IMG/VR virus record: IMGVR_UViG_3300021375_000007
Coordinates: 32,001 to 96,000 of that record
Direction: 5' to 3' (one strand)
From: a virus
Length of the DNA: 64,000 nucleotides
Shown: positions 1-33,084 of the stretch, one piece after another
Position numbering within the stretch: position 1 is the first letter of the stretch
Layout: every line of letters begins with the position of its first letter
Made by a program: the position numbers and the translations under genes
The notes under the pieces: model-generated
Seen by the model: the letters and a program-made list of their open reading frames with translations, nothing else
Told to the model about the DNA's origin: nothing
The model's database searches: none

Positions 1-2197
1 AGACAGGTGATAATGTTGTTTTCGTGCCGCCGCCTAACCGTGCTACTGTTTTCTTTACACTATCGCCATAACCTATCTTAGCTAACGTATTTAGACTATT
101 CATTACTCTTTCACGCTCTACTGCAGATAATACTGGTACTTTAAAATCTATACTTAAATTTCTCGATGTACTATCATAATTACCTTCTTTAATACGTGCA
201 TATGCTTGTTGTAGCTCTCCGGTAGCAGTTGATATTGTCATACTAACCGAATCAATATACGATCTAAATCTGGCTACCGTATTATATGTATCTGTAGGCT
301 TGTCATATTCAGCTATTACAAATTTAACCAAATCTTTCGTACTATTACCTAATACCAATTGGTCGGCTTTTTCTTTGTGCGATGTAATAACAGTGGCCTT
401 ATTATCTATTACATATCGTGGATTGCTCCTATCCATTGTATTAAGATCGCCATAATCGCCAATACCAATTCTTTTAACTAAATTACTATCCTTATACTCT
501 TTGTCCTTAGCATTTTTACCAACTCCGGTATTTTTAGGTCTCTGAGAAAATTCTAATCCGTAATTTGCTCTATTCAACGGCACGTTATCACGGAAATCAT
601 TTGGTGTAATGGTACTAGTACTACCATCTGTTGTAGTTCTGTTAAGATCGCCATATGCTACTGTAGCATAACGCTTTCCTATATCTTTAATATTGCCATC
701 ATTCTTACCTAATACTTTAGATTTAGCAGGATCTTTCTTTATTTCATCATATGTTTCACGTAATTTAATAATACCTTTGCCAGCCCATTCAGCTTCTTCT
801 TCTTTTGTTAAAGGTGAATTATATTCTCTTGCAAGATTCGGACCAGGCAATGATGCTAACGCATCTGGCGATGTATAGGTATTATCATCTTTATATCGCG
901 TGATATCATACGTGCTACCATCATCAACCGGCGTGAGAGCGACACCAGCAAACATAACAGGTGATTGAAGTACTGAGTATGGTGTAGTAACAAACCGTAA
1001 TCCTTTAGTTGGTTTATTCAGTAATTTACTCTGTCTTAAAGATGTATTAGTATATCGCTTATTAGATGTAATACCTATACCTAATACGGACTTAGGACCT
1101 GTTAAATCTGTTATTGTTAAATATGGTAATCCAATTGGAGTATTAAATAATGGTCCTAATCCAAATCCATTAAACGCTTCGGTATGTAATGTAGTCAATC
1201 GGTTAAATCGAGTACCAAATCCTAATATATTACGCTCCTTAATAACAGATTCATAATTATAGGATGTCAATCCAGATGGATCAAACGAATCACGTCTGAC
1301 ATGAAATGGCACTGGTGCATTTAGGCTAAATACCGATAATGGATTATATATTTTATTGGACCTAGGAGTTACCCCTGTCCAGAATCCAGTTACACCTTCA
1401 ACATTTGGATTCATTAATTGCAGGCCAAATTGCTTAGCCTGAAATATCAATCCTTTCGGTGATATCATAAACTTGCCAATTCTAGCTTTATCAACGGCTT
1501 CGCGCTCGACGGCAGTGGTTATTCCACCTCGAGGTATATCAGTTAAGGTATCTGCAAATCCTCCCCAATATTGTGGATCTGAATTATTATCTCTTTGTAT
1601 TCCTCGTAATATAAAAGGCTGATCTGTTGCTAGTCCAAAACTGTTCTTATTCCAGGCCGCAGATCTAACTTTTACTTTATTGTATATATCATCAATTGGA
1701 GAATTGGTTGTATATGTATCTGCTAATCCAGAGTTACCATATATAGCACCTATATTATCATTATATTTGTTATCTTTATTCCATCCGGTATGAGCATTTG
1801 GCTTCCAATCATATACATTACCGGTCGGTCCTATAGGGAATGGAAATCCTATACCTCCTTGATTCATTCTTCTAGATGTACCACTTTCTCCTAATGCAGT
1901 AAATATTGGATAATTATCTTTGCTTTCTCGATAGCCTGGTCCTAGGTTAAAGAATCCAAAATTATTAAATCCAGGACGGAATCTTATAAACGTGCCAATA
2001 TTGGCTGTTGTATTTTCTAAAAATAATGATTGGCCGGTAGATGAAGGAGCTGCTCCTATCGCATTTATAGGGGTATTACTAGAACCTGGGCCAATTGGCA
2101 TTGCGAATGGCGACCGTGCAGGAGTACTTCCTTGTGGCGAAGCTTCTGGATTCCATATACCAGCGGATAAATTCGATACTAATTCTGTTAATGCCAT
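1..2197 (-). CDS. Partial (runs off window) tail/baseplate protein with C-terminal tube-initiator-like (gp48/gp54-type) domain
   Basis: Not in the ORF track. ATG at 2197 overlaps the tape measure TAA (TAATG) and reads MALTELVSNLSAGIWNPE...; the frame appears open to the window edge, ending in ...FRSYIDSVSMTIS...SRNLSIDFKVPVLSAVERERVMNSLNTLAK, which resembles tube-initiator folds. It lies directly downstream of the tape measure gene. Confidence 0.65.
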   Translation of the reverse strand, partial: MALTELVSNLSAGIWNPEASPQGSTPARSPFAMPIGPGSSNTPINAIGAAPSSTGQSLFLENTTANIGTFIRFRPGFNNFGFFNLGPGYRESKDNYPIFTALGESGTSRRMNQGGIGFPFPIGPTGNVYDWKPNAHTGWNKDNKYNDNIGAIYGNSGLADTYTTNSPIDDIYNKVKVRSAAWNKNSFGLATDQPFILRGIQRDNNSDPQYWGGFADTLTDIPRGGITTAVEREAVDKARIGKFMISPKGLIFQAKQFGLQLMNPNVEGVTGFWTGVTPRSNKIYNPLSVFSLNAPVPFHVRRDSFDPSGLTSYNYESVIKERNILGFGTRFNRLTTLHTEAFNGFGLGPLFNTPIGLPYLTITDLTGPKSVLGIGITSNKRYTNTSLRQSKLLNKPTKGLRFVTTPYSVLQSPVMFAGVALTPVDDGSTYDITRYKDDNTYTSPDALASLPGPNLAREYNSPLTKEEEAEWAGKGIIKLRETYDEIKKDPAKSKVLGKNDGNIKDIGKRYATVAYGDLNRTTTDGSTSTITPNDFRDNVPLNRANYGLEFSQRPKNTGVGKNAKDKEYKDSNLVKRIGIGDYGDLNTMDRSNPRYVIDNKATVITSHKEKADQLVLGNSTKDLVKFVIAEYDKPTDTYNTVARFRSYIDSVSMTISTATGELQQAYARIKEGNYDSTSRNLSIDFKVPVLSAVERERVMNSLNTLAKIGYGDSVKKTVARLGGGTKTTLSPV

Positions 2198-4443
2198 TAT
2201 CTTGCTCCTACTAGATATGTACTATTAATATCCGCCTGTGCTCTGATTTCGTCTACTACTCTATCACCTACGATGACTTGTACCGGTCTTCCAGATACTG
2301 CATTTATTAACTGCTGCAATAACCCTTCTACTCGTTCCATTGATCCATTGCCAGAACCACCTCTAACATCAGAAGCTAGGCCTCCTGGATCTTGTGTTGC
2401 TAATAGATAATCGCCAGGCGCTGTTGATATGATATTTCCACTAGGATCGATAACACCATCATTTATACCTGTCACTGTCATTGCTTCTTCAGCTAAATCA
2501 TATACAGGTATATCAGTATTTCCACCAAAAAGCCCCATTATTCTTTTATATGCATTTATAGCATTTTCATATACTATCTGAAATGGAAATAATAGCTGCT
2601 CGAGCACTGATTTAGCAAACAGCTTCACGGCGCCTATTAGATCTCCACTTAGTAATTTTTCCCATCCCTCAATCGCAGTCGTTATAGGTCTAAACGCTAT
2701 TTCAAGAGCTAGGGCGGATTGCTCGATACCAAATGCAATGAGTTCCACGAGTCCACTAATTATTTTAAATATAGGTGTAAGTGCTGATATAATCTTTAAG
2801 AAAGATTTACCAGCTGGTAATAAAGCTAATTTAATTTGATTTCCCATATCTGCAAAATCAGCTGACATCCGTTTGGCCGCTTGTTCTTGTGCCAATGCCT
2901 GCTCCAATTGTTCCGGCGTCATATTGGCTAATTGTTCCGTCGATAAATTTAATCCTTTCGCCGCGAGTAATTGTCCTTTCGTTGCATTTGTTAATTTATC
3001 TTGTATTGCTAAAGATTTAGATAATTCTTCAACAGACATTCCTGCTGCCTTAGCCGCAGCTTCTTTTTGGAACAGATCCATCTTACTAAATTCATCTATT
3101 CCACCCATTCCATCTAATATTAGCTTAGTAGCACCTGCTATATCATTATTCGCTGCTAATCGACGTGCCTCATCAAAATTAATTTCTTTGCCGGTTAAGG
3201 CCATAAATTCAAATTGGTTGGCTAAACTTGATTCTATATCTAATAATGATTCAGCTGTCTTGGCCATTTGATCTAAACTTACACCTAATTTACCAGCTTC
3301 GAATGCGGCCTTAGTTAATGCTTTAACATTACCACCAAAGAATTTTGCCGTTGCTTTTGCATTTTGGGCAATATCTGCAGTAACAGCGCCTACATTAAGA
3401 CCTGCTTGTGCAGCTTCCGTAGCTAATTCTCTTTGCGCATCCGCGGCATCCGCGGCAGGTACTCCTAATCCTATTAATGCATTATTTACTGCGGCTGCTT
3501 GTTCAGCACCATAACCAAATGCTTCTCCAATATTAGCAACTTCTGCAGCAACTTCTGCAGATAACATTGACATATTACCAAATTCTTTTATCGTAGCTTG
3601 CTGAACTGTTAATACATCTTTCATTGATATTAACTGATTATCTAATGATTCAGCTACATTTTGTGATTCAATTGATAATGCCTCGGCTTGAGCTACTGTA
3701 GTGCCTATATTTTTTGCCATTTCGGCAAATTGTTTTTCTAATGTAGCTGCCAATTTTACTAATTGCACTAACGCCGCAACAATTGCCAATGCCAACAATG
3801 GTCCTAATTTTACAACTTTCATGAATTTTTTCATTGCCTGGCTTGAAGCTTTGGTTATATCGCCTCCTGTTGCAAGCGTCTCATTGAATGCATCCATAGC
3901 CGCATTATGACCTTCCTGCAGATTCGATTTTATTTTGTTAAGGCCAATAATTTTTGATAACGCTCTACCCATGGGTATATACTTATCAATAAAGCTATCC
4001 AATTCTTGGCTTGCATTGCCTAATAAATCTAAAATTTTGCGACGATTATCTATTTCATCTTCACCTAATTCTTGCAATTTTCGTTGAGCACCTATAATGT
4101 GCTCAAGTCGAGTTACTCGTTCGGCTTGTTCTGCATTTAAATTTTCTAATCCACCGTTTAAAGCCACATATGCATGCATTTCTTCTTCTAACTTATCGAC
4201 TATATTTTTACTAACTATATAATTATCTCGCAATTCATCATTATATTGATTGCTTAATCCAACAATTTTATTTAATGACTTTTCTATTTCATCAGTATCA
4301 TTGCTAAGTCTTTCCGTCTCATCTGCCGCTACTCCCATTTTTTCTGCTACCTTACCGAGAGTAAATGCTACATCTTGCATTGCACTAACTAATTGCCTTG
4401 TTAAGTCAACCTGTTCCCGTAACAAATCATTATTATCTGCCAT
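2197..4443 (-). CDS. Tail tape measure protein
   Basis: 748 aa, Ala/Leu/Gln-rich helical coiled coil with hydrophobic segments, downstream of tube and chaperone genes. Confidence 0.85.
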   Translation of the reverse strand: MADNNDLLREQVDLTRQLVSAMQDVAFTLGKVAEKMGVAADETERLSNDTDEIEKSLNKIVGLSNQYNDELRDNYIVSKNIVDKLEEEMHAYVALNGGLENLNAEQAERVTRLEHIIGAQRKLQELGEDEIDNRRKILDLLGNASQELDSFIDKYIPMGRALSKIIGLNKIKSNLQEGHNAAMDAFNETLATGGDITKASSQAMKKFMKVVKLGPLLALAIVAALVQLVKLAATLEKQFAEMAKNIGTTVAQAEALSIESQNVAESLDNQLISMKDVLTVQQATIKEFGNMSMLSAEVAAEVANIGEAFGYGAEQAAAVNNALIGLGVPAADAADAQRELATEAAQAGLNVGAVTADIAQNAKATAKFFGGNVKALTKAAFEAGKLGVSLDQMAKTAESLLDIESSLANQFEFMALTGKEINFDEARRLAANNDIAGATKLILDGMGGIDEFSKMDLFQKEAAAKAAGMSVEELSKSLAIQDKLTNATKGQLLAAKGLNLSTEQLANMTPEQLEQALAQEQAAKRMSADFADMGNQIKLALLPAGKSFLKIISALTPIFKIISGLVELIAFGIEQSALALEIAFRPITTAIEGWEKLLSGDLIGAVKLFAKSVLEQLLFPFQIVYENAINAYKRIMGLFGGNTDIPVYDLAEEAMTVTGINDGVIDPSGNIISTAPGDYLLATQDPGGLASDVRGGSGNGSMERVEGLLQQLINAVSGRPVQVIVGDRVVDEIRAQADINSTYLVGAR

Positions 4444-4451
4444 AGATTTCC

Positions 4452-4712
4452 TTATCTAGTATGACGAAATCTTTTTTTACAATTTGAAAGATGTGGATTT
4501 CTAGCACATATTGATTTTATTACTTGCTTAACATTTTGGCTTTGTTTAGCGTAATCTATTAAAGCAGCTTTTAATTCTGGATCTGCCTCTGCTTCTTTAT
4601 ATATCTTGCTAAATGTACGTTTTAATTTAGGAGCAAACATTAATCCAAGAAATGAACCTAATATAGATTCATTGATTTGCTTACCATAATGTTCTAATGG
4701 ATCTTTTGCCAT
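4452..4712 (-). CDS. Hypothetical protein
   Basis: 86 aa ORF preceded by the late promoter motif (4731-4738) and AAGGG; contains an I-N-E site near the N-terminus. Confidence 0.7.
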   Translation of the reverse strand: MAKDPLEHYGKQINESILGSFLGLMFAPKLKRTFSKIYKEAEADPELKAALIDYAKQSQNVKQVIKSICARNPHLSNCKKRFRHTR

Positions 4713-4730
4713 AATAGTACCCTTCTTTGT

Positions 4731-4738
4731 TATAAATA
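4731..4738 (-). promoter_or_regulatory. Late promoter motif (sense ATATTTAT[A/T]); first of at least 17 copies
   Basis: The + strand (T/A)ATAAATA occurs at about 4731, 5818, 6395, 8224, 8538, 11135, 12104, 16769, 17455, 25170, 27076, 30656, 36766, 45152, 50359, 56732 and 58866, each about 12-30 nt before a minus-strand start codon. Confidence 0.75.
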
Positions 4739-4751
4739 TAAGGATAGCGAA

Positions 4752-4967
4752 TTATCGTCGTCTAGATGACGCTGCTTTGGCCTTTTTAGTGGCTTCTTCT
4801 TCGGCCTTTGATTTTTCTTTGTGCACATTGTCTACACTTCTAATATAAAATGTACGTAACCAGATCGGCATATCATATACATCAGACCAGGTGAATCCAC
4901 CCTTACCCCAATATATAAGATCAAATATTTGTTTATGAAGTGTAAGTCGGTAGCTAGGCGTCAGGCC
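4752..4967 (-). CDS. gp51-like / gpT-like tail chaperone extension, probably expressed by frameshift
   Basis: 71-codon frame GLTPSYRLTLHKQIFDLIYWGKGGFTWSDVYDMPIWLRTFY...; the D-V-Y-x-M-P-x-W-x-R motif is typical of tail-chaperone C-terminal extensions; no ATG/GTG/TTG before codon 33. Confidence 0.75.
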   Translation of the reverse strand, partial: GLTPSYRLTLHKQIFDLIYWGKGGFTWSDVYDMPIWLRTFYIRSVDNVHKEKSKAEEEATKKAKAASSRRR

Positions 4968-5796
4968 AAAAAAAGTTGACTCCTATCGGTAAGCCTAAAG
5001 TAAATGGATCTCCAGTCTCTTCATCAATGAATTCAATATCCATATCAACGTCAGGCTGAACTGTTTTCATATGTGCTCTTAAGGCTCTGGAATCAATTGC
5101 ATATAATTCATCACGAACAAATTTACGAACTTTTTCTTTATCCTCATCTCCATCTATAGACGTAATTGAATGTGCCAATCTAGTTGTTAATTGTGGATCG
5201 GCACCTCCAGTCTTTCTTTGAAGCTTTTTAAGACCTTTCAATTCTTTTTCAATCATATCATTGTCTCTATGCGATAGCATTTTAAACGTTATAGTTCGTT
5301 TACTGGTCGGTAGCTGGAATGAGAATTCATTTACCCCAGCCTCTATCGAACCTTCGTCAAATGGACGATCATCAATGCTAGTGAGGTCTATTGTTTCTTG
5401 TTGTTTCTTACCGGAAGGAGTAGTAACCTCTGTTACATAATCTTTACCATATCCTAAGATACGTGCAGCAATCATAATTGCATTTTTATCACCTACCAGT
5501 AAATCATTGTAATTGATTCTTTGGCCTTCACCATTTCCTACAATAAGAGATTGAAATAATTTGTCTAATACAACTCCTTGCTGAATATATGATTGAGTAG
5601 TAAGAATATCTTCTTCTTTAGCCGTCATATATTTCATTTCCACTTTACCTGATGCCAATGGATTGTCTTTTGGATATAGTAATCCTTTAGATGGCAATGT
5701 TACAATCTCCGTTGGAAATTTAGGTGGTTGTGCTGCTTCTGGGGTTGGATTGGCTGGTGTTCCTGCCGACCTATGGTTGGGTAATTCGTTGCTCAT
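4954..5796 (-). CDS. T4 gp26-like baseplate hub assembly protein / tail assembly chaperone
   Basis: LPSKGLLY...MTAKEEDIL...GDKNAIMIAARILGYG motif; ends NFFWPDA; lies between tube and tape measure; strong SD (TAAGGAG). Confidence 0.8.
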   Translation of the reverse strand: MSNELPNHRSAGTPANPTPEAAQPPKFPTEIVTLPSKGLLYPKDNPLASGKVEMKYMTAKEEDILTTQSYIQQGVVLDKLFQSLIVGNGEGQRINYNDLLVGDKNAIMIAARILGYGKDYVTEVTTPSGKKQQETIDLTSIDDRPFDEGSIEAGVNEFSFQLPTSKRTITFKMLSHRDNDMIEKELKGLKKLQRKTGGADPQLTTRLAHSITSIDGDEDKEKVRKFVRDELYAIDSRALRAHMKTVQPDVDMDIEFIDEETGDPFTLGLPIGVNFFWPDA

Positions 5797-5888: not shown

Positions 5889-6377
5889 TTAGAACTGCAA
5901 TATTGCATAATCATATTTCAATGTAAGCTCGATTTGAACCGGGTCTTCTGTACTCCAATCCATATCACCAAAGGTGGCAGAAGAAATAAAAGCACCTTTC
6001 AATGTCCATTCCTCAACTTTATCACCAACTGGTCCTAAAGCATTGAAAGTGATATCTTTTTTGTAGAAGTCAGAATAACCATCTCTACCTGTTACAGATT
6101 CGTGATGCAATCGTACCCATTCCATTACTGCCTGAGCACCGGATGGTACTACTGGATCATATAATGTAATGCTAACATCTTGCCAACGACTCTTCCCTTT
6201 GATCTTTCTTTCAATGTTGATGTGATCTAATACAATCTCACCTTGATCGATTGATGGTCTAGATGCAGCTTTAATAAGATATGATGGAATCCCATCTACA
6301 TACATAATAAACCTGTTACTTACTTTTGGTTCATATGCGGTAAAAAATATCTCGGTTGGATCTAATAATTGTGCCAT
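5889..6377 (-). CDS. Tail tube protein (gp19-like)
   Basis: 162 aa; EPKVSNRF, WQDVSITLYD, EEWTLKGAFISSATFGDMDW, IELTLKYD motifs; immediately after the sheath gene. Confidence 0.92.
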   Translation of the reverse strand: MAQLLDPTEIFFTAYEPKVSNRFIMYVDGIPSYLIKAASRPSIDQGEIVLDHINIERKIKGKSRWQDVSITLYDPVVPSGAQAVMEWVRLHHESVTGRDGYSDFYKKDITFNALGPVGDKVEEWTLKGAFISSATFGDMDWSTEDPVQIELTLKYDYAILQF

Positions 6378-6418: not shown

Positions 6419-8197
6419 TTACTCTGGAAAAGCAGCTCCCGTTGGTAAAACATTGAAATCAATAATAATGAATTCTGCTGTCTTGGCTGGTTGCAAGAAT
6501 ATCTGTCCTACTAATTGATTTCTATCAACTACGTCTGGGGTATTATTTGTTTCATCCATTACTACCTTGAATGCATATAAACCTTGACGTTGCTGGATAT
6601 CTTCAAAATAAGGATTGACAATAGAAAGGAATCTGTTTCTAGTTGCGGTCGTATTTTGCTCGAATACCAAGAACTTACTAGATGATGCAACAAATTTCTT
6701 AGATGCGATAAGTAATCTTCGTACATTAATTCTATCCAATGCAGATGATTTTTTCTGTAATGTCTTTTGTCCAAATACTACAACTCCACTGTTAGGAAAA
6801 GTTGCAATAGGATTAACATTACTTTCATAAAGATCATCTCGGTTGGTTTGAGTTAATTTTCTCTCAGCTCGAATCACTGTTTCCAATCCACCTCTGTTAA
6901 GACCTGCTGGTGCAAACCAAGGAGCAGCTACCATATCATTAAATGCATATACTCCTGGAATCAATGTGGTGGCTGGTACCCAAATATTCTGACCTAAATC
7001 ATTATCTGCGATTTGCAACCATGGCCAATACATTGCATTATAGCTTGAATCTTCTGCTTCTGCTTGTGCTTGTGCTGCTGATAATCCTGACCCGTATAAT
7101 ATTGGATCTGATATCATAAAACAATCACCTCTACCTTCTACCATGCTTTCTGCCGTAGATAATATAGCACCGTGATTGGCTGCGCTATTAAGTAATCCTG
7201 GGAATGATATCAAATTAATATCATATTCATCTTGGTTACTTAATAAATTAATAGCATCTGTATAAGCTGTTTTACCTTCATCAGTAACACTTAGATTAAA
7301 TCCTTGCGTATTGGTATTGGTAATGCCATTATAAAATTGCTGTGGATGCTGAACGTTTCCATCTGACCCATTAGCAAATGTTCCTGATACTGCTTGTGGT
7401 AATGAAGCGGAAGCAGCACCTACTCTAACATTTCCATTTGAATCTAAATAATTAAGAGTGGTTTTAAGTACCTCGGCTCTTACATATTTAGACCTTACTG
7501 GGAATGAACCTGATAATTGCAAGAATGGTGAAGTGCCACCGGAATCTCTCATTGTAAATACCTGATCACCAATTCTCCGTGCAATATAATTAGGTGAATT
7601 TGGATCTAATGTAAGATTGTTATATTGTTCAACAATGGTTTTTCTTCTTGAAGTATCATCGCCTCTTCTAATATATAAACTAAATGTACCTAAATTATTA
7701 TTAACATTTGCTACTTCCCATCGTAGGTTATCAACAGAACCGGAAACAAGCATGCTATTTGTTGTTTCATCTGCCGCTATTCCCTCTCCTTCTGACGATG
7801 CTACAGCTTGACCACTATTCATAATAGCGCCATCGGCTAATGTATATAATCTAAATGAATTACCGGCTCCGGATGATGTTACAAAAGAATCAGCAGGAGC
7901 ATACGCACCAGCCATAATTCTTGTCACGGTTAATGTATCAGCATATTTTAAATAGTTTTGTGCTGATATAGATGTTAAATATTTATACGACTTTTCATCT
8001 GCACCAGAACCACTAATGAATACATCTCCAAATATTTGTCTGTATTCATCATACCCAGATACAATTGTTGGTACCATTGCTGGACCTTTTACGGTTGGTC
8101 CTACAACTGCGGCACCAATTGCACCTATTGCGGCTGGTAAAAATGATTGGTCAACTTCCCTGGTAAACACACCAGGACTTACAATTCTTTCGGCCAT
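6419..8197 (-). CDS. Contractile tail sheath protein (gp18-like)
   Basis: SPGVFTREVD N-terminus; WFAPAGLNRG, VNPI, FGQKTL, DRINVRRL, FEQN and PAKTAEFI motifs. Confidence 0.97.
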   Translation of the reverse strand: MAERIVSPGVFTREVDQSFLPAAIGAIGAAVVGPTVKGPAMVPTIVSGYDEYRQIFGDVFISGSGADEKSYKYLTSISAQNYLKYADTLTVTRIMAGAYAPADSFVTSSGAGNSFRLYTLADGAIMNSGQAVASSEGEGIAADETTNSMLVSGSVDNLRWEVANVNNNLGTFSLYIRRGDDTSRRKTIVEQYNNLTLDPNSPNYIARRIGDQVFTMRDSGGTSPFLQLSGSFPVRSKYVRAEVLKTTLNYLDSNGNVRVGAASASLPQAVSGTFANGSDGNVQHPQQFYNGITNTNTQGFNLSVTDEGKTAYTDAINLLSNQDEYDINLISFPGLLNSAANHGAILSTAESMVEGRGDCFMISDPILYGSGLSAAQAQAEAEDSSYNAMYWPWLQIADNDLGQNIWVPATTLIPGVYAFNDMVAAPWFAPAGLNRGGLETVIRAERKLTQTNRDDLYESNVNPIATFPNSGVVVFGQKTLQKKSSALDRINVRRLLIASKKFVASSSKFLVFEQNTTATRNRFLSIVNPYFEDIQQRQGLYAFKVVMDETNNTPDVVDRNQLVGQIFLQPAKTAEFIIIDFNVLPTGAAFPE

Positions 8198-30663: not shown

Positions 30664-33084
30664 TTACCGAGAATAACGAAATAGGCCTAATAGTTGATTT
30701 ACTGGTGCAAATGCGCCTGTATATTTGTAGGTCTTTCCTTTATATACAAATACTATGCCTTCTGATGGTACTATTTTATCAAAACCACCTAATCGTTCTA
30801 TTCTCTGTAATTGAATTTGTAATTTATTTAATGCTTCAAGATCATTTGAATCTTTAACAGCCTTTATTGCTTGTGCTACATCTTTCCTTAGGCTCTTAAC
30901 AGAATCCGCAGGATTAACTGCTAGATAATTAGTAATGTTACGCATTACATCGGCTCCTAACTCTAAAAAGATTTCTTCAAACTTTTTAATATTCTTTTTA
31001 CCTAAGGCCACTGATTGTGTTTTATCAATTTCTTTAGCCTTAGCTAATACAGCAGCATCAGGTATATTTTTTCCATTTAGCCTAAATGATTTATCACCCA
31101 ATGCCCATCGCCTCGTTAATCCATCTTTTACTTCTGGGGAGGCTTCTGGTATATTCTCATTAATGAATTTGGTCCACCATTCTTCATGATATTCAGATAC
31201 TTCTGCCTTATCCGGCAAACCAAACTCTTTTTGAATCTTATTTATCTTGCTAATATAATAAGGTACCTTTTCATCAAATTCAATATCCTTTTGCATTTGA
31301 ATTACATTTGGTGGTATAATCTTAAAATGCTCCTGTGTATCTGCATTTACTTTAGCAATTATCTTTTGAAGCTTATCACCCTGGTCTGGATATGATTTAA
31401 CTTTTTTACCAGTCTCATCAAATTCATCTAACCCATGGAATTGCAGATATGCAGCAGGTCCATATGATATAACATTTTGAGTGGCCGGATATATAATTTC
31501 CAAATTAACAAATCTACGACCATTCTGAAATAATTTAGTTCGTTGAGCTTCTGGTATTGCTAAAATAGCCTTTTCTAGATCTTCCATGGCATAAACAAAT
31601 GCTTTTTCAATATCTCCCCTGCCTTCAAATTTTTGAGCAATATCATCAATACTCATTGGATTGATAACTGTTGATTTATTTCTAGCAGCACCGACTTGAC
31701 CGTCTTTAAACGTAACTTGCAAATTCTGGCCATCCGTCTTTTCAGATACAGCTGATTCTAAATCTAATTCACCTGCCAATGACCGTCTTACTAATTCTTT
31801 AAGATCTTCAAAAGTTAAATCATTATCATCAAATGGATGTGCCATATGGCCTGCTGCTCCGCCTTCTGTTAATAATTTAGATTCTTTAAGAATTGATTTG
31901 AATTGCATGTTCCACCATTCTTTACTAGTTACAGATTCATCCATTGCTATTGGGTCCTTGCTAATTGTTTTAGGTGTTGCCTTAAGTACACTGGTAGGCT
32001 CTTTGATACTCGATTCAATAGAATCTTCGGCACCTAAGAAATTTAAAAATTTATATCCTACTTGCTGAGCTACATTATTAATATATGATTTCCATTTATT
32101 ATATGCAGGCTTACCTTTTAATTCTTTGAAATAATTTGTTCCTGAATCTACTGCACCGTCAATACCTACCGGAAAGAATGATACCGCCGGTACAGGTCCG
32201 CCTGGAAATTTAGTATCATATTTTGGTAGTTCTTTGTTTCCGTTAAGATAATTTATAACGGTATATCCTAACCTTTTTGCAATTTTTGCTGTACTAGCTT
32301 CATATGATTTATTATTACCATAAAAATATCTCGGACCATCATCCACATCTTGATCGGCTGGTGCTGTAGATGATGCTTCGTTTAATATTGATTTGATATC
32401 ATATGACTCTATAAAACGTTCTATTTGCTCGGCTTGGGATGCATCTGATGCAAGTACCTTCTGGACCATCCCGTAGACCTTAGGATCACTTATACCGGTT
32501 ATATCCTTGAAGCTTTTTTCATCTGCTGTCGCAAGCACTTGTCGCAATGCAGTACCACTCATCTCTCCATCATATCCAGGAATATCAATTTCAACATGAG
32601 GAGCTACGATTACATATCCATGCGTCGCCAATCCTTTCATTTCTTCGCCTTTCTTGTAAGGTTGGAAATATCCAGGGCTACCATCTTTTTTGGTATATGA
32701 TAATCTACCAGCATCCTTTTTACCATACATGATAAGTAATGCTGTAGTATCAGGATCAAATTGGTCCGTGATTTCAACTGGTCTATATGGATTAGTTTTT
32801 ACTACTTGCCCTGCAGGTACTCCCATGGCTGATATAATTGATTTTTTTTGATCAAATGTAAATGGTGATTTATCTTTTAGCTTACCTTTACTATCCATGT
32901 TATCAGCTGTTGCAATAAAAGTATTTTCTTTGCCAAATTGCTTTGCTAACCAATCATATGCTTCTTTATGATGCTTACCGAAAGGTTGGAACCTTCCGGG
33001 GTAGATTGCAATTACTTTATCAATACCATTATCTTCAGTGATAATGCGTTCTGCTAACCAAGTACCTAAATCCATCTTATCCAT
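30664..33084 (-). CDS. Multidomain protein: cytidylyltransferase-like (HIGH-superfamily) domain plus ATP-dependent ligase-like nucleotidyltransferase domain
   Basis: N-terminal IYPGRFQPFGKHH and MSGTALR; C-terminal SEKTDGQN (KxDG), EII, EGIVF and terminal YKYTG motifs. Confidence 0.7.
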   Translation of the reverse strand: MDKMDLGTWLAERIITEDNGIDKVIAIYPGRFQPFGKHHKEAYDWLAKQFGKENTFIATADNMDSKGKLKDKSPFTFDQKKSIISAMGVPAGQVVKTNPYRPVEITDQFDPDTTALLIMYGKKDAGRLSYTKKDGSPGYFQPYKKGEEMKGLATHGYVIVAPHVEIDIPGYDGEMSGTALRQVLATADEKSFKDITGISDPKVYGMVQKVLASDASQAEQIERFIESYDIKSILNEASSTAPADQDVDDGPRYFYGNNKSYEASTAKIAKRLGYTVINYLNGNKELPKYDTKFPGGPVPAVSFFPVGIDGAVDSGTNYFKELKGKPAYNKWKSYINNVAQQVGYKFLNFLGAEDSIESSIKEPTSVLKATPKTISKDPIAMDESVTSKEWWNMQFKSILKESKLLTEGGAAGHMAHPFDDNDLTFEDLKELVRRSLAGELDLESAVSEKTDGQNLQVTFKDGQVGAARNKSTVINPMSIDDIAQKFEGRGDIEKAFVYAMEDLEKAILAIPEAQRTKLFQNGRRFVNLEIIYPATQNVISYGPAAYLQFHGLDEFDETGKKVKSYPDQGDKLQKIIAKVNADTQEHFKIIPPNVIQMQKDIEFDEKVPYYISKINKIQKEFGLPDKAEVSEYHEEWWTKFINENIPEASPEVKDGLTRRWALGDKSFRLNGKNIPDAAVLAKAKEIDKTQSVALGKKNIKKFEEIFLELGADVMRNITNYLAVNPADSVKSLRKDVAQAIKAVKDSNDLEALNKLQIQLQRIERLGGFDKIVPSEGIVFVYKGKTYKYTGAFAPVNQLLGLFRYSR

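Follow-up and report, generated by a model that had tools for sequence, protein, structure and literature searches.

A probable +1 frameshift fuses a gp26-like gene to a start-less extension in an uncultured marine T4-like phage

How is a conserved reading frame expressed when it has no start codon of its own? The question is raised by IMG/VR virus record IMGVR_UViG_3300021375_000007, of which we analysed positions 32,001 to 96,000, a stretch of 64,000 nucleotides (nt) referred to here as the window; coordinates are those of the window unless another record is named. Its source is an uncultured marine T4-like phage with a 153-kb genome of 35.6% G+C that is 87% complete, and the genes discussed here all lie on the minus strand. 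One of them, G (4954–5796), is a gp26-like gene of PF12322 type encoding 280 amino acids (aa) that end in FFWPDA*, and its 3′ end reads ...CCG ATA GGA GTC AAC TTT TTT TGG CCT GAC GCC TAG (PIGVNFFWPDA*). The run of seven T's in this sequence (T7, 4968–4974) is read in frame 0 as UUU (4974–4972), UUU (4971–4969) and U(4968)GG, its final T being the first base of the TGG codon. The +1 frame has 71 open codons past the run, reading ESTFFGLTPSYRLTLHKQIFDLIYWGKGGFTWSDVYDMPIWLRTFY... until a TAA at 4754–4752; we call this open reading frame (ORF) the extension T (4755–4967, GLTPSYR...SSRRR). Its first ATG, GTG or TTG is the ATG of '..DMPIW..', at codon 33 after the run and inside the conserved domain. 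Upstream, the +1 frame is closed by a TAG at 4983–4985, 26 nt before the 0-frame stop, and entry into T must therefore fall inside a 26-nt overlap. The layout had been described in an earlier, sequence-only reading of the window (the original prediction), and every detail of that description was correct.

The original prediction explained the arrangement by a programmed +1 frameshift on UUU UUU U, and the evidence below makes +1 ribosomal frameshifting very probable, with a change to the slip unit. One gene would thereby yield two chaperones resembling the gpG and gpGT proteins of phage lambda. Most ribosomes would stay in frame and stop four codons past the Phe-Phe pair, releasing the 280-aa protein as the equivalent of gpG. 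In a minority, peptidyl-tRNA-Phe on the second UUU (4971–4969) would re-pair in the P site one base forward on UUU (4970–4968), with 4968 as the skipped base, and the shifted ribosome would read GGC CUG... and add a 71-residue, three-helix domain. The long product, conceptually 276 + 71 = 347 aa with the junction ...GVNFF-GLTPSYR..., would be the equivalent of gpGT. Such a slip, at whatever efficiency, would make both forms, and both would presumably be needed; by analogy with gpG and gpGT, the tape measure protein would be bound and coated by both, and recruiting the tube or hub would fall to the extension that only the rare long form carries.

The switch of selected frame at the junction

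We searched IMG/VR with three different queries for relatives of the 280-aa protein, added GenBank isolates, and located both domains by profile hidden Markov models (HMMs), independently of any nucleotide motif. The extension lies in the +1 frame in 181 of the 184 loci having both domains. One of the three exceptions, L157, has a T8 run and a second indel, which probably reflect an error; the other two, L182 and L188, encode T as a separate gene and are taken up below. Motifs were counted over 119 distinct junctions, drawn from 178 loci. The most frequent, TTTTTTTGGCCT (TTT TTT TGG CCT), occurs 86 times, followed by TTCTTTTGGCCT (TTC TTT TGG CCT; 12), TTTTTTTGGTCT (TTT TTT TGG TCT; 9), TTCTTTTGGTCT (TTC TTT TGG TCT; 8) and TTTCTTTGGCCT (TTT CTT TGG CCT; 2), with one instance each of TTTTTTTACCCT (TTT TTT TAC CCT) and TTTTTTTGGGTT (TTT TTT TGG GTT). 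The sequence YUU_U is present in all 119, as UUU_U in 117 and as CUU_U in two, the latter from independent lineages (the isolated Flavobacterium phage immuto and L133). Within the motif only the first codon (TTT or TTC) and the P-site codon (TTT or CTT) vary, whereas the flanking codons vary freely, and the lineages compared are only 30–60% identical in protein sequence. Where the P-site codon encodes Phe it is TTT without exception, against 72% of Phe codons in the rest of these genes.

These counts redraw the slip unit. A +1 ORF behind TTT TTT T had been expected to be conserved, and the ORF is, whereas T7 itself is found in only 97 of the 119 junctions. Because 20 junctions have TTC TTT T and two have TTT CTT T, UUU UUU U is wider than the functional unit; judged from the aligned junctions, the conserved slippery unit is the narrower YUU_U (UUU_U or CUU_U). 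The claim of a programmed +1 shift into a start-less ORF is itself upheld: in 56 of the 119 junctions the +1 frame has no ATG, GTG or TTG between the preceding stop and the motif, and in 87 it has no ATG.

Selection changes frame at this point. Frame 0 is conserved until the Phe-Phe pair, with Pro at −5 in 99%, then varies and stops within 3–7 codons. In the +1 frame, conservation is lacking ahead of the motif and sets in with the first codon that follows (Gly 99%, Leu 100%). This Gly-Leu pair is kept through synonymous codons, GGC, GGT or GGG and CTN or TTA, while the overlapping frame-0 residue varies among Pro, Ser and Val. The −1 frame meets a stop after two codons in the window (TTG GCC TGA) and is not conserved in the relatives either. 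The switch of selection from frame 0 to +1 at one nucleotide is the expected signature of a frameshift junction. Beyond the junction the extension is under purifying selection, and a library of 1.84 billion proteins contains 394 cluster representatives of the T family at E < 1e-3, nearly all called as short ORFs in which frame-artefact residues are followed by FFG.

In public records for phages immuto and Mel-JY01 the region is annotated as two unrelated coding sequences, and the long product is missed. The immuto record (L001, MW353175) has a 36-aa coding sequence at 6839–6949 that begins at an internal ATG of the extension, and the Mel-JY01 record (L082, PP395634) has the extension at 4992–5228, annotated from an upstream TTG.

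Chaperone-like fold of G and relatives of the extension

By sequence, G matches phrog_150 'baseplate hub' with an E value of 1.2e-9, and over residues 47–184 it scores 21.4 bits against PF12322 (E 2.2e-4), under the cut-off of 24.5; a PF12322 search of the phage's own genome returned no match. Relatives in the same alignment exceed that cut-off, with 62.9 bits for P0126 and 71.1 bits for P0102. The AlphaFold 2 model of G is confident (mean predicted local distance difference test score, pLDDT, 91.9), and Foldseek searches of BFVD with it return models named 'baseplate hub (assembly) protein, T4-like' at E 1e-19 to 1e-8. By fold and transitive similarity, the window's G is a divergent member of the T4 gp26/gp51 family. 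CxxC cysteine pairs are kept in T4 gp26, L085, L086, P0126 and P0102, and the second pair of T4 gp51 reads CC. The 280-aa G has no cysteine, and hence neither of the two CxxC pairs of the family; the window's clade has lost them, with the fold still confidently predicted.

We also compared the G model, without Foldseek, with 48,161 solved chains representing the Protein Data Bank (PDB). The first three ranks, all aligned over model residues 23–125, were 3FGX (Z 5.5, root-mean-square deviation (rmsd) 4.1, 84 residues aligned), 3KLU (YqbN; Z 5.4, rmsd 3.9, 84 aligned) and 2OB9 (HK97 gp13; Z 4.8, rmsd 4.4, 83 aligned), which are exactly the known tail assembly chaperone structures (PMC9603447). 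That the top three ranks of a model comparison should all belong to one functional class, and to the class expected from gene position, seems hard to ascribe to chance. A sequence search of G against the PDB returned nothing relevant, and Foldseek against the PDB returned nothing significant, with 2OB9 only at E 0.84. Residues from about 118 to 276 form an extra domain with weak zinc-ribbon-like matches (Z 3–4). The original prediction had called gp26 and gp51 'analogues' of G and GT; with solved tail assembly chaperones as the best matches of the modelled N-terminal domain, that word may be too weak.

The extension is modelled by AlphaFold 2 as three helices (pLDDT 91.4), which in Foldseek searches of BFVD resemble mostly unnamed viral proteins of 53–64 aa, at high probability and weak E values; a single 'tape measure chaperone' at E 0.78 is suggestive only. 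Weak matches to Pfam DUF6760 occur in 13 of 57 members of the T-domain family (best E 4.6e-5). The phage genome, as recovered at 87% completeness, has one copy of G and one of T.

T4, by comparison, has two PF12322 genes, diverged paralogues on opposite strands. Its gp26 (208 aa) consists of the domain alone and ends ...EFFELL, three residues past the aligned FF, and its gp51 (249 aa) has the domain at residues 1–201 followed by a 48-residue C-terminal tail. In a joint MAFFT alignment the FF of T4 gp26, the FF of the slip site and the beginning of the gp51 tail share one column. The cyanophages P-SSM2 and S-PM2 carry a single PF12322 gene, and immediately behind it comes a 57-aa ORF annotated as gp51 from an ATG. 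The second ORF of P-SSM2 follows U UUU UUC (AGT TTT TTC GTA TAA) in the −1 frame, at a site homologous to that of the window, so that the direction of recoding differs between clades. The annotated ATG stands nine bases past this heptamer, and separate initiation is harder to exclude there.

The original prediction labelled T gp51-like, and the similarity proves remote. By hhalign, the T family matches S-PM2 gp51 at E 3.8e-4, whereas the direct comparison of the T family with T4 gp51 gives E 0.49, which is not significant, with the best local match at gp51 residues 223–244. S-PM2 gp51 matches T4 gp51 residues 212–246 at E 6e-5. The T-family profile finds the P-SSM2 gp51 ORF at E 0.029 per genome and has no match in the T4 or S-PM2 genomes; a second weak P-SSM2 match, at 160613–160723, falls within an unrelated hypothetical protein and is spurious. 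Neither T4 gp26 nor T4 gp51 is reached by an HMM built from the conceptual G–T fusions. Because the direct comparison is not significant, we keep the label only for a remote similarity, one that synteny supports and that reaches T4 gp51 indirectly, through cyanophage gp51.

The slip site and competing routes into T

Several features of the junction point to a forward slip in the P site. The clades with TTC TTT T and TTT CTT T are compatible only with a P-site tRNA that leaves UUU or CUU and pairs with UUU one base forward. CUU_U is the site of the +1 shift in the RF2 gene (prfB), at which UUU is among the next most slippery P-site codons (PMC10885494). As in Escherichia coli prfB (CUU_UGA C), the P-site codon in the window's family can re-pair one base forward onto UUU; two lineages have the exact CUU_U and the rest have UUU_U. 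The family differs from prfB in having a sense codon in the A site (UGG, and UAC once, in L086) where prfB has a stop, in lacking a conserved Shine-Dalgarno-like stimulator 3 nt upstream and in having no autoregulatory logic. An A-site UGG had been part of the original prediction, and it is indeed present; it is probably a by-product, its first base being part of the slip site and the GG that follows beginning the new-frame Gly codon, because the one lineage with UAC has Thr instead.

A number of observations weigh against the +1 reading or the homology that goes with it. The in-frame sequence UUU_U occurs 135 times in the 78 longest ORFs of the phage genome, so the motif alone cannot give efficient shifting. 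Across the relatives we found no conserved stimulator: the Shine-Dalgarno-like AGGAG (4980–4984), a candidate that stands 8 nt upstream of the proposed P-site codon rather than 3, is confined to the window's clade and not kept in others, and a downstream hairpin is absent in the window and most clades. The A site offers no slow codon, UGG being used at 11.7 per 1,000 codons in the genome and thus not rare. L182 and L188 have T as a separate gene with its own ATG 2–5 nt past the G stop, and the protein databases hold three in-frame versions of the fusion (P0126, P0102 and P0105), each a singleton cluster from one contig. On the side of homology, the structural Z-scores of about 5 are modest and the direct T4 gp51 comparison fails, as described above.

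Either the shift is inefficient, as in lambda, in which the product ratio is 30:1 (PMC5009743), or some stimulator acts beyond those found. In seven lineages (L008, L009, L011, L013, L036, L051 and L072) a G+C-rich hairpin of 5–7 base pairs begins 6 nt after the T-run, and its stem shows compensatory changes between lineages (GCGCCT/AGGCGC, GGGCCT/AGGCCC, GGGGCC/GGCCCC and GGGCTTG/CAAGCCC); the pattern suggests that it may be a lineage-specific stimulator. A phage tRNA reading four bases was considered and rejected, as the phage has genes for tRNA-Leu(taa), tRNA-Tyr(gta) and a doubtful transfer-messenger RNA only, the last found by ARAGORN with the tag GEQVELAMAA (G000:C1 111037–111124, 115613–115698 and 127710–127997, respectively, all outside the window). 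The genome has three more in-frame TTT_T sites close to where a long ORF ends (G000:C1 55491, 139839 and 146069, counted on the reverse-complement strand). The +1 frame at these is open for 60–249 codons past the stop, and they are probably ordinary overlapping genes.

A different answer to the question would be that T is a separate small protein, unfused to G and produced from a non-canonical start or by termination-reinitiation. T is indeed a separate gene in L182 (about 2230–2552) and L188 (about 2225–2440), where it carries ~20 extra N-terminal residues (MENIDNLLREIQ...GRQFLG), and covalent fusion is therefore not universal. An own start codon in homologues had been named as grounds for abandoning the frameshift, and these two loci are the only ones of the 184 in which T has its own ATG after the G stop. 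Some ATG, GTG or TTG does precede the motif in the +1 frame of 63 of the 119 junctions, in L083, a locus of a huge phage, an ATG stands three codons ahead of the junction, and the cyanophage gp51 ORFs are annotated from an ATG. However, no canonical start is available in the window or in 55 other distinct junctions, and the sole near-cognate candidate in the window, a CUG, is not conserved, the Leu codon being CTA, CTT or TTA elsewhere. Separate initiation would also leave unexplained the strict conservation of YUU_U, synonymous positions included, and it sits poorly with the lack of conservation of +1-frame residues upstream of the slip. We regard it as improbable for the family, though it is the best placed of the alternatives to a +1 shift.

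Two further mechanisms would exploit the T-run itself, and we consider both very unlikely, to an equal degree. If the P-site tRNA-Phe moved back two bases on U7, the ribosome would reach the same frame as by a +1 slip and make ...NFFFGL..., with one extra Phe; perfect re-pairing is possible in the window and across the 97 T7 junctions. The 20 TTC TTT T and two TTT CTT T junctions, however, would give UCU or UUC-type mismatches, and one mechanism for the whole family is simpler. Alternatively, RNA polymerase could lose one U on T7, so that some messenger RNAs would be read through into the T frame and give a product identical to that of the +1 shift. Homopolymer runs can cause such slippage, but a seven-base run is short for efficient slippage by bacterial polymerases, and the same architecture occurs in lineages where the run is reduced to four T's (TTC TTT T) or broken by a C (TTT CTT T). 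Logan contigs from four sequencing runs, in which rare variants are dropped, show no indel at 4968–4974. Metatranscriptome contigs from the same resource cover 4703–4878, with DNA carry-over possible, and none of the RNA contigs spans the slip site.

The T7 run would matter little by itself. Runs of the T7/A7 type number 17 in the window against 42.5 ± 9.3 expected from dinucleotide-preserving shuffles, less than half the expected frequency; the run alone is not above chance and its significance comes from conservation. It is nonetheless real. The same T7 is present in four further IMG/VR contigs (L002–L005, 93–100% identical), which with the window makes five independently assembled, near-identical phages. 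A DNA contig produced by another, independent study covers 4630–5529 with 26 substitutions and no gap. The homopolymer miscall against which the original prediction had advised checking is therefore excluded as the origin of T7. In favour of the fusion, the three in-frame proteins are colinear with the conceptual +1 products, in alignments that cross the junction (E 1e-38 to 1e-63). Loci related to P0126 and P0102 show frameshifted relatives only, and the in-frame versions could be sequencing errors. That the split layout is an artefact of a once in-frame gene, or T a dead remnant, is thus barely credible, given 181 loci that share the layout and differ at many other positions, the purifying selection on T and the singleton status of the in-frame versions.

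Gene neighbourhood and known recoding systems

In minus-strand order the locus comprises the tube gene, G, T, a small ORF and a tape measure candidate, an order also found in phages immuto and Mel-JY01. The upstream neighbour (5889–6377) is a gp19-like tail tube gene, matching phrog_4542 'tail tube protein' (E 1.1e-25) and PF06841. Downstream, 2197–4443 encodes a probable tape measure protein of 748 aa; its TMP_2 match is weak (E 0.0087), and the syntenic gene in immuto is annotated as tail tape measure protein. The two overlapping ORFs thus stand between tube and tape measure genes, the position of G and GT. A 592-aa gene at 6419–8197 is a probable tail sheath gene by position only, because it lies upstream of the tube gene, in the slot of the annotated sheath in immuto and Mel-JY01. 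Between T and the tape measure candidate lies an 86-aa ORF (4452–4712), known from the ORF call, which has no match in Pfam or PHROG; small ORFs fill this slot in relatives too, for example L082, L087 and L088.

Xu, Hendrix and Duda reportedly described in 2004 a conserved frameshift in the tail assembly chaperone genes of long-tailed phages. A later review states that the G–T frameshift is conserved in such phages 'except T4' (Atkins et al. 2016, PMC5009743). The window resembles lambda in its two overlapping ORFs between tube and tape measure genes, in having the short product as that of normal reading, and in an N-terminal domain whose model best matches solved chaperones of the gpG/gpGT class. 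It differs in the slip, a proposed +1 P-site event on UUU_U where the lambda type uses a −1 tandem slip on X XXY YYZ, in the size of the first protein, which at 280 aa is much larger and has an extra C-terminal domain, and in lacking detectable sequence similarity to gpG or gpT. Since the open conserved frame is +1 and no −1 heptamer of the form X XXY YYZ serves it, the arrangement is not a standard G/GT member, yet it works like one. The closest parallel in direction is the haloarchaeal myovirus HSTV-2, whose tail chaperone genes are described as 'very likely +1' (PMC5009743). By the review's description this contractile-tailed virus is likewise +1 and not −1 at the tail chaperone position, although its host domain and its proteins are unrelated to those of the window. 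Our literature searches turned up no paper describing a frameshift in gp26-like genes.

Leiman et al. (2010, PMC3004832) name T4 gp26 and gp51 as hub assembly chaperones whose mechanism is not known. They belong with the window's G to one family at the level of fold and profile (phrog_150, PF12322-type); gp26 ends near the slip-site FF, and the 48-aa extension of gp51 can be aligned colinearly with T. T4 makes its two forms from two paralogous genes without a frameshift, whereas the window's single-copy gene would make both. The cyanophages P-SSM2 and S-PM2 share with the window a PF12322 gene followed by a short gp51-like ORF, with the junction at the homologous Phe-Phe, and P-SSM2 differs in having its second ORF at −1 and not +1. 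We lean, with modest confidence, towards the view that the PF12322 proteins (T4 gp26, gp51 and their relatives) and the lambda-type tail assembly chaperones are truly homologous, though very divergent. T4 would then be no exception to the G/GT rule, with its short and long forms coming from two paralogous genes, and in its marine relatives a single gene, recoded at the same Phe-Phe, would supply both. Between clades the slip would have changed direction (+1 on UUU_U, −1 on U_UUU_UUC in the cyanophage type), and the extension would have become a separate gene in a few lineages.

The tail chaperone frameshift is among the most conserved recoding events in viruses, with T4 as the review's one exception (PMC5009743). 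If our reading is true, the T4 superfamily shares the two-product logic and the exception is removed. T4 gp26 and gp51 would gain a testable role as the short and long chaperones of the tape measure protein gp29. The family would also provide a large natural set of +1 shifts at a sense-codon site without an obvious stimulator, a set useful for asking why UUU_U slips at one site and not at 130-odd other in-frame copies.

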